Positions 7,614 through 28,318 of a stretch of 64,000 nucleotides of DNA are shown one piece after another. The notes below the pieces were generated by a model. The model worked only from the letters and a program-made list of their open reading frames with translations, made no database searches and had not been told where the DNA came from. A program made the position numbers and the translations under genes. Source of the stretch: Eledone cirrhosa (taxonomy: Eukaryota); contig OZ024741.1 of assembly GCA_964016885.1 (NCBI GenBank), positions 208,196,001-208,260,000 of the forward strand, in the 5' to 3' direction. Each line of letters starts with the position of its first letter. Position 1 is the first letter of the stretch.

Positions 7614-9104
7614 ACATACATAGATACATATGTATTTACCTAGGTGATGTTTGCATTCCAATGAAAGAGTCCTGTATCTATGTATAAAAACCGACTCAAT
7701 GATGTTATTATCCACCAAGATTGGCAAAAGACAGTTCAGAGTTAAATCCAATTTTTTTTATTTCCACGCGGTAAGTAAATAAATATCTTTTTCTATTATC
7801 TAATGATTCTGACGATGTCTATACAACTGAATTAAATGCCACATTCTTCTGTATTTGAATATCCAGGTTCGAAAAGCAGGCTGGCCGCTTAGGCGTGGGA
7901 AAATTTGTCAAGAATAGAAAAAAACAAACACAGAGATACAACAACACAAAGTCATTAGTTTCACGGCTAGGAAGAAATAAGTGACGGTTTCGGCGTATCA
8001 GACATAAGTCCTACTTCGGGAAATGGGGAGTTCGAAGAGAGAAAATGTTGGGGAGAGAGAAGGAAAACATTTTGAGAAGAAAATTTGGGGAGTAGGGTCG
8101 CGGAAATGAGTGAAGTGCACGATCTTTTCACAGACCCAGCAATGAACGCCCTTAGTAATACGGGTCGTGAGTGAAGTGTATCATGTGTGTGTATGTGTGC
8201 GTGCGTATGTGTATGTGGTTGGTGTTTAGAAGGACATCTTGTTGTAAACCATGCCAAAAACCACCGAGATTTTGTTCTCCGACCAATATAGGAGTGCACT
8301 AACTCCAAATAAAACTGACATGGACCATAAGCACTCTTGCAAACCATGCCACAGGATCAAGAAGACATAAATTAATAATATTTATCAGGTATATATCAGG
8401 TATCTATCAGATATTTTGGTATATTTTGTATATCACGTCTTACACTGCCTAAAGTGCTATCATTTTAAAGATAATGTGATTTGAAAGAAAACTGTGTTAT
8501 ATAACACCATGATTTGTTTCCCCGGTTCTTACTATTCTATTCCTTTTTTTTCTTCACGGCTTTTCCATGATGAAGGTTTACTGTCCGAAACGTTGAGCAC
8601 TCTCACTTTCGATTTTTTTTTCCTTACAATTGAAAACGTATGAGCAAATACTTTGTATTCTTGTTCAGTTTTTCATTTTGTTTTGTTCCTCACACAGTAG
8701 ACGAGTGGTTCTCAAACGCCGCGAAAGAGCAAGATCCGATTTCAAAATGTGAAAAATACAAATTGTAATTCATAATAAAATTCATATATAATTATCAAAG
8801 TGTAAAAAATAAATAAACTAAGAATGAAATAATTGCCAAAAAAACACCAAGTGTATGTTTCTCGTTGATAACTTCGTTCTATTTATTGACTAAAGAAATA
8901 CAAATATTAATTATCTATATTTCTGCTTTATGCTATACAAATATATATGACTACCTCTTTGAATACATTTTCGAATTAACCTATAAACTGAGCCAAAATA
9001 TGTTTACTTGTTCTAAAGTGCGTTGTGAGGAAAAAAAACCCCAACCATTGCAATATATTTAACTCCATGTAAAAAGTGAATAATATTAATTATAGAAGTA
9101 TAGA

Positions 9105-9312
9105 ATTGGCAGTATCGTTAGAACGTCGAACAACATGCTTTGAGGCATAGAATTGCGGTCTTTTAAGTTCTGAGATCAAATCCCGCTAAGTTAGCTTTGC
9201 CTTTCATCCTTATGTGTTCGATAGAGTAAAGTACCAGTAACTGGGGTCGATTTAATCGACTTTACCCTCTCCCAAAATTGACCGTTTGCCTAAATTAGAA
9301 ACCAAAATTAAT
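9105..9312 (+). mobile_element. SINE copy (diverged)
   Basis: attggcagtatcgttagaacgtcg...ctgagatcaaatcccgc...ctttgcctttcatccttatgtgttcgatagagtaaagtaccagtaactggggtcg. Confidence 0.85.
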
Positions 9313-9865
9313 TATAGAATTAGAAAAGTAATTACCCCCCATCAATGGAAAAATATTAGCACAGTTATTAACTAGTTTCAAAATATCACAATAAGGTTTC
9401 ACTTCCAATTCACCATTGTCAACATTGTCAACAGAACCTTGGTTTATTGGACGTTAGCAACGAGTCATTTGACAGGGCAGTGATATGTGGTCTTGGATAT
9501 GGAAATCCTAAACATGATCATATATCTATCTATAATATCATAAAGCTGAGTGTCGTGTGTATGTATTATGTATGTATGTATCCTACACACCTCCCTATAG
9601 TTTCTTAGCTTTACTCTCTCCGTCGCTCTTCCCTCTCTCTATAATATATCATTCTCCCTCTCTATAATTTAACTCCGTTACTCTCTCTGTCGCTCTTCAC
9701 TCTCTAATATTATAAAGCTGAGCGTCGTCTCTCTCTCTCTCTCTCTCTCTCTCTCCCTCTTTCACCCTCTTTATAATTTAACTGCTTTATTCTCTGTCCC
9801 TCTTCACTCTCTATATGACAACACTCTTTTACTTTCCGTATCTACCTTCAATATATCAATATATA

Positions 9866-10150
9866 CCCAGGTTCTGCTGCTCGTCGGGCTGAGGGGGCCA
9901 AACTTCTCAAATATCGGTCGCTCTCCGACAGGTTTGCGGTCGTACCCCTGACAGTGGAGACTTCTGGTGTTCTCGGCCCCAGGGCTACCTCCTTACTCAC
10001 CACCATAGGCGCTGAGCTGGCCAGCCGCAGGTGTGAGCCCCGCGAGTTGGAGTGGCTTTTTCAGCACGTCTGCCTTGCCGTCCTCCCGGGAAACGCCTTC
10101 TCCATTCTGTCCGCCGGCGCTGTGGGTGGGCCACATCGCGCACTGTTGTA
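9866..10150 (+). mobile_element. 3' fragment of a CRE-like non-LTR retrotransposon (restriction-like endonuclease C-terminus)
   Basis: Translates AARRAEGAKLLKYRSLSDRFAVVPLTVETSGVLGPRA...WLFQHVCLAVLPGNAFSIL. A second copy is at 26140-26590. Confidence 0.7.
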
Positions 10151-10388
10151 GTTTTTGTATACAGATATTAACTCATCAAACCCATTATTTATATCATATA
10201 TCAACATAGAGATGAGCGTCGTATGTATGTTTAGTTCAAAGGGATAACCTCCTTCAAATTCGGTCAACGCACAAGCAGGTAATACATATATCAAAAGGCA
10301 ACCCTCTTAGAGAGACAGAGAGTCAAAGAGACAGATTAGGAAAACTACACACACACATCTAAAGAGAGAGAGGGGAGAGAGGGGAGAA

Positions 10389-10786
10389 GGAGAGAGAGAG
10401 AGAGAGAGAGAGAGAGAGAGAGAGAGAGAGAGAGAGAGAGAGAGAGAGAGAGAGAGAGAGAGAGAAACAGAGGGATGTGCAAGCAGGTAATACATACATC
10501 TAAAATCATTTGGATACAAATATCATTATATAATGGTTGCAGAAGGAAAATACAGACTCTTTTTCTGTTGTCGCTCGCATAAGTAACACACACACACACA
10601 CACACACACACACACACACACACACACACACACACACACACACACACACACACACACACACACACACACACACATACACACACACACACACACACACACA
10701 CACACACACACACACACACACACACACACACAAACACACACACACACACACACACACACACACACACACAAACACACACACACACA
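10389..10786. repeat. (GA)n and (CA)n microsatellites
   Basis: (GA)n at 10389-10465 and (CA)n at 10586-10786. Confidence 0.95.
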
Positions 10787-25688: not shown

Positions 25689-26139
25689 TTCTTATATAAT
25701 AAGGTTACGTTCTCAAGGCAATCCAAACAGAAACGACAAGGGAACGGACAAGGAGTTTGTTCTTGAATCGCCTGCTCGCTCCCCTGTGGTCAACAATTCA
25801 CCTCCGCAAGTCTGCGCAGGCGCAAACGGAAGCTGACTATCCACTACTACACGAAACTCACCAAAAACTAGCCTACGCAGGTCCCCTCTCCCCTACCTCC
25901 AACCAAATTACCACCTCGTCCAGGTTGGTAATATGACACTGTTAAAGTATACTGCGATCTGCCTTGCCAGTGGCAGCTAACCGAAATCTAGTGGTGGTGG
26001 CAGAGTATGAGTTTCAATAGGCCTGGACAATATGAGAATATAAACTTATTTGTAGATATTTTTATTTTTTATTTAGTACATAATGTATTAAATTTTTAAA
26101 ATGTTATTCAAAAGATTTTCTTAATTATAGCAATGGTAC

Positions 26140-26590
26140 GTGATGGGGCCCATCCACAGCCCCAGCGGACAGAATGGAGGAGGCGTTTCCCCGGAGGTCG
26201 GCAAGGAAGAAGCGCTGGAAAAGTCACTCCAACTCGCGGGGCTCACACCTGCGGCTGGCCAGCTCAGCGCCTATGGTGGTGAGTAAGGAGGTAGCCCTGG
26301 GGCCGAGGACACCAGAACTCTCCACTTCCAGGGGTACGACCGCAAACCTGTCGGAAAGCGACCGGTATTTGAGGAGTTTGGCCCCATCAGCCCGACGTGC
26401 AGTAGAACCTCGGTCAGTCGCAGACTGCACCAGGTTGCGGCTGCAGAAAGTGTCGGCTGCAGAAAGTGTCGATGGGTTTGCCACCGCGGAACGGGAAGAT
26501 GGTCATGCCATCTGGCCCTTTGCCGTCCCCTCGATCCAGCCCCACCGGCTCGAGCTGGGAAGGGAAGCCTGCAGCGTCCAAGCCATGATA
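26140..26590 (-). mobile_element. 3' fragment of a CRE-like non-LTR retrotransposon (RLE domain)
   Basis: Minus: DGKGPDGMTIFPF...DTFCSRNL...AKLLKYRSLSDRFAVVPLEVESSGVLGP. Homologous to 9866-10150. Confidence 0.7.
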
Positions 26591-27006
26591 TTATGGTTTC
26601 ACAGTGGAAATTAAAAATTAAACGTTAAAAACGTGATTGAAGTGAATAAAAATATATATATAAAGAGTAAATAGGGAGATGTTTATAATAAAGTAAGAAG
26701 TTTAGAAAAGGGGGTCAATATTGGATATTTAAGATATATTATCAATATATTATTAATATTAGTACCGTATAGTCGAACAGAAAATAAATTAAGGTATGAA
26801 ACGTAGTAATTAGGTAAACAATTAGTTAATATCTTCTTCTACCATATGAATCAAAACAAAACCAAAAGAAAAGGTACATAGATGCAAATGAGAGAGGAAA
26901 CATGTATGAGAAAAAATATGAGAAAAAAAAAAAATATATATATATATATATATAACAAATAAAATAACAGGAGGCTGGACTGGTATAAATCCTTGAAAAG
27001 TTTATT

Positions 27007-27064
27007 ATACTATGATCATTTCAATGACCGGGTTCCGTATGAATCCGGTGATATCATCAGGTAT
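27007..27064 (-). ncRNA. Type I hammerhead motif
   Basis: Minus: ATAC-CTGATGA-tatcaccggattc atacg gaacccggtcatt-GAAA-TGATCA-TA-GTAT, then AATAAA (27001-27006). Confidence 0.75.
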
Positions 27065-28318
27065 TCGAAATATTACAAAGGAATATATAAAAACCATGGG
27101 TCCGAAAATCAGAGAGGACGACTGACCAGCTAGCTGCTTACACCCCGGTCAGTCGCCTTCAAGTGATGGCAATTCGGTCTACTAATGACCATCTGGTGAG
27201 GGGGCGAAGGCTTATAATGTTCTGCCACCTCTCCGGCAGAGAATAAAAAAAGAAAGAAAGAAAGAAGAAAAGTCAGCGTAAGGGTCACACTACAGTCATG
27301 CTAGAGGACGCCGCGAAAAATGTTATTCCAAAGAACCCATATTTTAACAAATGCATATATAAGGGTGCCTGTATGGTCTAATGTGTGAACAGAAAATTGG
27401 AACGTTAACTTATGCTAAGAGTTATAGGATGAAATTAAATTATTAGAAAATTAATAGAAAATTAATGGTTTGTGTTGCTAGATTTATTTAATGAAATTAC
27501 AGTGAGAGTCTTATATGAAAAAGTTTAAGTGTATTATAGGGAATCTCGATAAGTTATCAAGGGGAGATATAGAGTAAAGATAAAAGCCTTCGATTGTAAA
27601 TCCCAGCCAGCACCTCCTTCTAGCGAAATAAATGGAAATTTATTTTTCCGAGTACTCTAGGAACGTAGCTGCGATAGGCTCCGGGTGTGCTAGCGGGAAG
27701 TCAACCAGCTTCTACAGGCCATCGTCTATACCAAACGAATACTATTAATTCACACAGGAGGGGTTTATTTACGTGCCAGCAGAGGAAGGCATGATACAGC
27801 TAACAGTTATGCCTAAGCCTAGAGTTGGCAGTATCGGGAGAGGGTCGGACGCTATGAGTATAATGTGGCGGTCAAAACTGGTGGTGCAGCGGGCACCGGG
27901 GCAAATCGATCCGCTCCGAGTAGTTTCGTTTACCGAAAGAGGGGAAATTTATTTTTCCAAGCACTCAAGGAAGGCTGAACAATCAAGCATCCTATACATA
28001 GGAAGCCTGACTTAAATTACCTGATTGCAGTTTGATTCAGTTTCTGAACTGAATAGATGATATGGCCATCATTACCAGAAGAGTTCGTCATCAGAAGGGA
28101 TTCTGTAAGGTATAAGAAGAATATAAATACTCGTTGACGGAAAATTTGTCATCAATAATCGATCCAACAAGGTGCAATAAAAAAAATAAAAATAGTGCAC
28201 GCATGCGTAAATATTTGTACCTACGGACAAAAAGAGAGGCCTAAAATTCACTAGAAATAGCAATCAATCGGGCTGTCAATCAGTTCACCATATTTTAGGA
28301 CCAGTATTTATTAATATA

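Follow-up and report, generated by a model that had tools for sequence, protein, structure and literature searches.

Why is one short stretch of the Eledone cirrhosa genome crowded with sequences shaped like self-cleaving hammerhead ribozymes? The window analysed here is 64,000 nucleotides of the 3.0 Gb genome (contig OZ024741.1, positions 208,196,001 to 208,260,000; G000:C2:208196001-208260000), and the motifs lie in a (TA)n-rich field at positions 8566–28100 that also contains the open reading frame (ORF) of a Penelope-like element (PLE). A preliminary description had seen there many unrelated, ORF-less ribozyme-bearing elements piled up around this one PLE. From the evidence presented below we consider it very probable that the motifs are hammerheads near the constant 3' ends of many PLE families, comprising coding elements as well as ORF-less units that were likely moved in trans.

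A descriptor scan recovered all eight hammerheads that had been called well formed, at the positions and on the strands given for them, each with CTGATGA, GAAA, a paired stem III, TH and a stem I of 4–8 bp:

Plus strand: 11478–11533, 21210–21284, 22669–22777, 23164–23228 and 23821–23887, well-formed hammerheads.
Minus strand: 25159–25214, 25624–25688 and 27007–27064, well-formed hammerheads.

Core nucleotides C3–A9 and G12–A14 are present in all eight together with an NUH cut site. A stricter descriptor, which loses 22669 (stem II longer than 60 nt) and 25624, keeps six of the eight in the field; 200 block dinucleotide shuffles gave a mean and a maximum of zero, and the reversed window contained no strict match. 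This comparison with shuffled sequence, envisaged in the preliminary description, came out in its favour. Because the descriptor itself favours pairing, a second search was added that used both core segments, a T....A stem III and TH with no rule for stems I and II. Over 790 kb outside the field (63 arbitrary and 16 neighbouring stretches) it returned 41 matches, compared with 21 in 20 pooled shuffles; stem I positions 1–4 are paired in 38, 38, 37 and 37 of the 41, and stem II positions 2, 3, 5, 6 and 7 in 37–39. Chance matches in AT-rich repeats would agree with the silence of the Rfam hammerhead models, which score none of the motifs: no hammerhead family was found in the window at E ≤ 1, the matches being microsatellite-driven miRNA below the gathering score, and nothing reached the gathering score in four further loci. 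This explanation is refuted by the shuffles, by the stem-free search and by the compensatory changes described next, and its probability is negligible. The ribozyme-shaped motifs are, on sequence grounds, real type I hammerhead folds, with self-cleavage as a prediction.

Stem II was analysed in a biased sample of 198 distinct motif copies from 1.3 Mb, which form 42 clusters. In the 16 clusters with a T....A stem III, stem II position 4 is never paired: its 5' base is C in 16/16 and the opposed bases are C·C in 14/16, with compensatory changes at neighbouring positions. From 20 representatives, all taken from a stem-requiring scan, three near-duplicates and another row were excluded, which left 16 for the stem alignment; here 12 of 16 pairs change on both sides, as high a number being reached in none of 500 shuffles, and position 4 is paired in none of the 16. 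In the stem-free search, whose descriptor does not require the mismatch, position 4 is paired in one of the 41 matches, with a 5' C in 37 and C·C in 29. As the clusters are related, we read the C-mismatch, which is common to the stem II design of five families, as conservation and not as repeated origin. Over about 40 sequence clusters the core nucleotides, the NUH and all three stems are kept and only N7 varies freely. None of the Hydra hammerhead rows in the accessible part of File S2 of PMC8557442 shows an extended stem II with a C-mismatch (comparisons with published work here and below refer to the accessible portions of the sources, except for PMC13282606), and a literature search on a hammerhead stem II C–C mismatch gave no match.

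Most stem IIIs had been described as 6-nt palindromes or near-palindromes, which is borne out: seven of the eight are 6-nt palindromes or G·U near-palindromes, and that of the 21210 motif is a 13-nt hairpin. The claim that six or more motifs are followed directly by AATAAA needs to be trimmed, as the hexamer lies within 12 nt 3' of the cut site in five of the eight, straddles the site in one (23821) and is lacking in two. Four of the seven weaker entries stand at the family level. These are 15127−, 18990+, 20703+ (whose family motif, with a 95 nt stem II and CGATCG, is damaged here and intact in 9/14 other copies) and 25295+ (a family motif with a 90 nt stem II, CATATG and a bulged stem I, intact in four of five loci outside the window). 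At 12417− only the 5' half resembles a motif family, and 8566+ and 28030− are unsupported, with no relative among the loci compared.

Every window motif that was searched belongs to a dispersed family. The field is composed as follows, with family labels (A–M, H1–H5, N1–N3 and P) that are our own:

11418–11578, plus strand: family A, 161 bp 3' stub of a putative Hydra-clade PLE between (TA)n runs; hammerhead 11478–11533, H17 at 11528.
12414–12528, minus strand: degenerate or chimeric motif; its 5' half matches the hammerhead family of loci L348 and L106.
14933–16176, minus strand: inverted, 5'-truncated copy of the resident PLE 3' end; U3–A8 hammerhead variant at 15122–15170.
16192–17856, plus strand: resident PLE ORF, 5'-truncated, 554 amino acids; reverse transcriptase (RT) and C-terminal GIY-YIG, Neptune-type CX4CxxC linker.
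18986–19034, plus strand: U3–A8 hammerhead variant near the resident PLE 3' end; core TTGAAAA, stem III CCGG, weak stem I.
20703–20826, plus strand: family J hammerhead, stem I damaged here; stem II 95 nt, stem III CGATCG.
21010–21534, plus strand: family E, complete unit (about 525 bp) with no ORF; hammerhead 21210–21284, hairpin stem III.
22406–22925, plus strand: family F, 3' 520 bp of an 839 bp ORF-less unit; hammerhead 22669–22777, stem II 82 nt.
22928–23271, plus strand: family B1, 3' stub with an inverted tail piece (22928–23088, minus strand); hammerhead 23164–23228.
23780–23915, plus strand: family B2, 3' stub of a putative Hydra-clade PLE; hammerhead 23821–23887.
25114–25274, minus strand: another stub of family A, with 97% identity to that at 11418–11578; hammerhead 25159–25214.
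25293–25411, plus strand: family M hammerhead-like motif; stem II 90 nt, stem III CATATG, bulged stem I.
25575–26926, minus strand: family C, 5'-truncated copy of a 1,229 bp ORF-less unit; hammerhead 25624–25688, GC-rich insertion near 26030–26590.
26951–27980, minus strand: family D, 3' half of a unit (about 2.0 kb) with no ORF; hammerhead 27007–27064.

Each family search scored the 40 best candidates only, which biases the loci towards query-like copies, and the numbers of first-look candidates (A 704, B2 899, C 3,131, D 2,363, E 1,081, F 2,921, B1 555 and J 3,386) are not copy numbers. All families have a constant 3' end next to (TA)n and varying 5' ends, and most have inverted 5' pieces. 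The insertion pattern thus consists of 5' truncation, inverted 5' pieces, partial tandems and an optional tail; the fixed 3' end, variable 5' end and inverted pieces are those described for PLEs (PMC8557442). The hammerhead folds are located 50–300 nt inside the constant 3' ends. Since the scissile bond lies within 88 of 96 incidental copies, the templates were either uncut or re-ligated. An accumulation of 5' ends around the cut site was rejected as weak at best (9/96 start within −5 to +9), as was AATAAA as the determinant of the 3' end, since several families without it end equally far from the cut site. Some young copies are 97–99% identical. Most top-scoring copies of family A (L001–L030) have a common 5' break just past a CATATGT stretch of the parent element, suggesting that annealing to the (TA)n target truncated them.

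Two kinds of coding PLE can be linked to the field. The resident ORF carries RVT_1 and GIY-YIG domains and corresponds to frames of 777 amino acids in other copies; 149 other scored copies are 99% identical over its last 154 residues, and used as endonuclease query it gave 24,124 first-look candidates. Its KCGRTNCGTC linker (Nematis has such a linker too) and its Cys/His pattern would fit a Neptune-type PLE. The 3' motif of this element is a U3–A8 variant, exact in 27 of 29 other copies, none of which has the C3–G8 core there. The 15127/18990 pair represents this variant and contains the sole window motifs of the resident element.

The second kind appears to belong to the Hydra clade. In family B2 an ORF, a 3' untranslated region (UTR) and the hammerhead are collinear in two independent loci (L161 and L162), the ORF being decayed. 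Its protein, read from the L161 frames, has RWR, DKT and CNCRNKSDC (a CxCX5C linker) and no CCHH, which are Hydra-clade features (PMC8557442); seven homologues were found, four of them with PF26215. In family A a Hydra-type endonuclease is encoded 1.09–1.36 kb upstream on the same strand in 7 of 20 longer copies, the endonuclease match being the sole ground for the Hydra assignment of this family. With that gene upstream in longer copies, family A was rejected as a stand-alone 161 bp short interspersed nuclear element (SINE). An ORF for an RT with C-terminal GIY-YIG thus lies upstream on the same strand in A, B2 and P (the resident PLE), and 11478, 25159 and 23821 are 3' stubs of putative Hydra-clade PLEs with an RT/endonuclease gene. 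Pfam did not recognise the Hydra proteins. Matches to a Hydra-clade endonuclease query are very abundant in this genome (63,369 first-look candidates), and 30 examined loci yielded five further families. A canonical hammerhead lies near the 3' end of H1; H4 (L297–L300) has the core CTGAGAA and a long hairpin stem III, H5 (L301–L303) has the core CAGAAGA, H3 (L293–L296) has a clear 3' half only, with no clear 5' core, and H2 is a single locus. The core of N1 (L304–L305), likewise an ORF-linked PLE family, is TTGATAA with CCGG. The Hydra clade has been described from few, mostly cnidarian, families.

The motifs at 21210, 22669, 25624 and 27007 belong to ORF-less units of 0.5–2 kb that occur as partial tandems. 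Two whole hammerheads one unit apart give unit lengths of 1,229 bp for C (L094), 2,027 bp for D (L155) and 839 bp for F (L169). The D unit is whole in four loci. Contigs from three runs of unrecorded kind, derived from no more than one sample, cover the D copy, and their summed depth is much greater over its hammerhead end than over its body; as such depth does not measure copy number, it carries no weight here. Of 15 loci of the roughly 525 bp unit E, nine show a partial copy joined head to tail immediately upstream. The longest stop-free frame of E is 89 amino acids; frames of 154–172 amino acids occur in single copies of C, D, E or F only and are not common between copies, and the four units have no tblastn match to eight PLE proteins. 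An RT near F in L170 was rejected, as it lies 708 nt upstream of the hammerhead of another family. With no coding capacity and one type I hammerhead per unit, C, D, E and F have a retrozyme trait. The elements are therefore neither all unrelated nor all ORF-less, as the preliminary description had them: 11478 and 25159 are one family, five families have a common stem II design, and 11478/25159 and 23821 are 5'-truncated stubs of coding elements, probably of the Hydra clade. Its proposal of non-autonomous PLE- or retrozyme-like families survives for the ORF-less part, as the motifs are type I PLE hammerheads and four of the eight lie in ORF-less units.

In principle these units could be true retrozymes, whose tandem transcripts are cut, ligated to circles of about 525, 839, 1,229 and 2,000 nt and reverse transcribed by rolling circle, an explanation that concerns the form of the template and is compatible with the PLE origin favoured here. 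The units are circularly permuted, and insertions exceed one unit through intact hammerheads, which a doubly cut linear monomer cannot yield. In E (L130) the direct and the inverted arm can both cross the unit junction, and stem III of E is predicted to be able to fold as a monomer; circles are documented for animal retrozymes (PMC7229834). However, a tandem transcript left uncut would produce an identical pattern, and RNA that has not been processed is the main substrate of an anole PLE in vitro (PMC11167929). No array beyond a partial dimer was seen among the loci compared; the units exceed the typical retrozyme repeats, and short (150–450 bp) tandem-array units were not seen in the top-scoring loci, where units are 525–2,027 bp and at most partial dimers. 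Moreover, only one of nine Xenopus dimers was cleaved in vitro (bioRxiv 10.64898/2026.07.22.740005). We consider circular templates less likely than not.

A further link between ORF-less units and coding PLEs is found in the tail. Most families have two 3' ends, about 50 or about 140 nt 3' of the cut site and about 90–150 nt apart. In read-through copies of 11 families the short end is followed after 4–9 nt by RCTC (A 1/1, B1 12/13, B2 9/12, C 4/6, D 13/13, A2 1/1, G 7/7, H1 1/3, H3 3/5, H4 14/16 and H5 10/12), compared with 7.7% of control windows. RCTC is present in all five ORF-linked Hydra families sampled, and in most families a GAG(T/C) motif follows 20–70 nt past it; a Poseidon-like family scored 0/1. 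Because this 3' motif is common to them and the Hydra PLEs, C and D were likely moved in trans.

Is the field itself a special locus? In 63 stretches of 10 kb at round coordinates on large contigs (629.8 kb in total; not a formal random sample) there are 37 strict hammerheads, or 0.59 per 10 kb. This extrapolates to about 176,000 strict motifs genome-wide (bootstrap 105,000–257,000), an estimate in which mutated copies are counted but variants with a long stem or an altered core are not. At 3.1 per 10 kb, the field has about five times the average density. Ribozyme elements that had gathered around or derived from the resident PLE, or were kept for a host function, would account for the five strict matches in one 10 kb bin, equal to the highest count in the 63 arbitrary stretches, and for the low probability (P of about 0.013) of at least six strict matches in two random stretches. 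The limits of the field were set after the fact, however, and about 1% of 20 kb stretches would match it, which corresponds to thousands of places. The flanking 160 kb contain eight strict matches, the families are scattered over every large contig, and the resident element accounts for the 15127/18990 pair alone. A (TA)n run is found within 200 nt downstream of 40 of 45 matches, compared with 26% of random positions; match counts correlate weakly with (TA)n run counts (rho 0.27, p 0.03), and the TA-poor stack of long interspersed nuclear elements (LINEs) at 28–64 kb has no strict match. We regard a special locus as very improbable: the field is a dense sample of a genome-wide pattern. A pile-up around one PLE is not upheld, as the same strict motif recurs throughout the genome and most families appear to be of the Hydra clade, the resident element being probably of the Neptune type.

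The scheme worked out for the anole PLE can be inferred, by analogy, to fit the window families. That element starts reverse transcription at two internal RNA sites, which gives a tail, prefers AT-rich DNA and uses uncut RNA, and its hammerhead cuts only with the help of protein (PMC11167929). In our model an RT–GIY-YIG protein would bind an RNA tail that starts with RCTC...GAG, nick a (TA)n run and prime from either of two sites within the RNA, as the anole PLE does in vitro. Copying would pass through the uncut hammerhead, so that nearly every insertion carries one; as the fold is copied first, even stubs of 130–160 bp would do so. The abundance of the motif is likely explained by reverse transcription that begins a short way 3' of the fold and in most cases ends prematurely. 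New insertions would fall in the TA flanks of older ones, generating clusters of the kind seen here. Cutting by the ribozyme would require that the palindromic stem IIIs of successive tandem copies pair, perhaps assisted by protein, and would trim the precursor RNA; solitary stubs are likely inert. Stem III self-duplexes are predicted at −2.2 to −10.7 kcal/mol.

Alternatively, the folds may no longer cut and serve only as binding handles for the PLE protein. Successful families do have altered cores (U3–A8 in P and N1, CTGAGAA in H4 and CAGAAGA in H5), hammerhead mutants did not stop insertion in vitro (PMC11167929), and the conserved C-mismatch could be a protein contact. The retention of the core, the NUH and all three stems argues against loss of cutting, as does the anole PLE hammerhead, which does cleave with protein help (PMC11167929), and we consider handles without cleavage unlikely. 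A bolder version would have an ecosystem of unrelated ORF-less replicons of 0.5–2 kb that self-circularise and hijack Hydra RTs via RCTC...GAG, with the C-mismatch turning on cleavage as a tertiary or protein contact of a new sort, in a genome that would be among the most hammerhead-rich known (about 180,000); taken as a whole we find this rather doubtful.

Several points weigh against the assignment to PLE families moved by Hydra-type proteins from shared 3' ends. B1, J and M yielded no parent ORF (few of their copies include at least 3 kb of upstream DNA), and single-locus ORF links of M, A2, G and B1b failed to extend collinearly. The clade assignments come from motifs and not from an RT tree. 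The tail motif is missing from K (0/9), RCTC...GAG is not predicted by folding to pair, so that a hairpin was rejected, and the Neptune families have no read-through copies that could act as control. E (0/11) and F (0/2) also failed the automatic tail test, because it took the long end; the motif is seen at +202 in E and +60 in F. In motif density the field exceeds 98.7% of random pairs of 10 kb stretches. Cleavage and expression are predictions here, the motifs being known from DNA. Finally, the monomer hammerhead fold lies 1.1–9.5 kcal/mol above the minimum-energy fold in 9/9 window motifs; together with the self-pairing stem IIIs, these predicted energies are in line with dimer-dependent cutting in tandem transcripts.

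Other repeats surround the motifs. At 19341–19895 an inverted pair of a repeat family, with 25 matches among the loci compared, has a 3' end with the first half core (CTGATGA) only, before (TA)n; on inspection no topology could be completed for this half core at 19869. It resembles the 'half core' of Naiad elements (PMC8557442). GC-rich fragments at 9865–10143 and 26135–26413 are 91% identical and of opposite orientation, one of them splitting the family C copy. We take their frame to resemble the C-terminal restriction-like endonuclease of a non-LTR (long terminal repeat) element. At 24250–24640 a 56 bp unit is repeated head to tail about six times with 99% identity, and at 370–2770 a strongly G-skewed minisatellite array consists of GTGTGTTGTAGTGGTAGAT-like units. 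A short interspersed repeat with five copies (9174, 28397, 33508, 33789 and 33937) is presumably a tRNA-derived SINE. The LINE stack occupies both strands of 29000–64000, almost without (TA)n runs; its frames include an 892-amino-acid RT (50232–52910, minus strand) and an endonuclease with RT (54684–57000, plus strand).

The phenomenon is of a known kind. PLE hammerheads, dispersal as single motifs of truncated elements, action as dimers and the U3–A8 variant have all been reported (PMC4209133). The motifs described here agree with those pseudo-LTR hammerheads in being type I with a palindromic stem III, a long stem II and the U3–A8 core, in the many families per genome, in the prevalence of single motifs of truncated PLEs and in opposite-strand pairs. 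They differ in number (about 180,000 estimated compared with up to 9,000), in a stem III insert of at least 6 nt, in the stem II C-mismatch and in stem II arms of up to 95 nt. With the Hydra-clade PLEs of PMC8557442 they have in common RW(K/R), DKT, CxCX5C, the lack of CCHH, (TA)n targets and a 3' hammerhead, and Hydra-1_Obim from Octopus bimaculoides is listed there with a hammerhead (Craig et al. 2021, PMC8557442). Here, however, many families coexist in one genome, the 3' UTRs measure 1.1–2.3 kb and the tails 90–150 nt compared with 30–40 nt; the accessible portion of that paper makes no mention of non-autonomous Hydra partners.

Non-LTR retrozymes, which reach up to 120,000 copies in axolotl (PMC7229834; bioRxiv 10.64898/2026.07.22.740005), are likewise ORF-less, with one type I hammerhead per unit, a head-to-tail arrangement and a proposed PLE origin. 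The units of 525–2,027 bp found here differ in being scattered through (TA)n as 5'-truncated, inverted or partly dimeric copies, with no long arrays, and they are known as DNA whereas circular RNA is a retrozyme feature. Non-autonomous Chlamys PLEs such as MRC1 (PMC8557442) also combine the lack of an ORF with pseudo-LTRs and head-to-tail insertions. They mostly lack canonical hammerheads and resemble their partners over the 3' end, whereas C, D, E and F share with their likely partners only the short tail motif and, for C and D, the stem II design. The anole Poseidon PLE PAc (PMC11167929) is alike in its two internal RT start sites, AT-rich targets and insertion through an uncut hammerhead; it differs in that the hammerhead overlaps the ORF start, the tail is short and the clade is another. 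The main text of a 2026 Octopus vulgaris repeat annotation does not contain the word 'ribozyme' (PMC13282606), and our literature search, with most subscription papers outside its reach, found no survey of hammerheads in octopus, cephalopods or the Hydra clade. What is new is the scale, the ORF-less 0.5–2 kb Hydra partners, the shared tail motif and the stem II C-mismatch.

Because none of these motifs is detected with Rfam, ribozymes are heavily undercounted in genomes of this type. The genome offers dozens of diverged families, young copies and naturally occurring tandem dimers, as well as two conserved features open to direct mutation, the C-mismatch and the tail motif. It thereby bears on two questions, the role of the PLE hammerhead and the way in which non-autonomous partners recruit PLE proteins.

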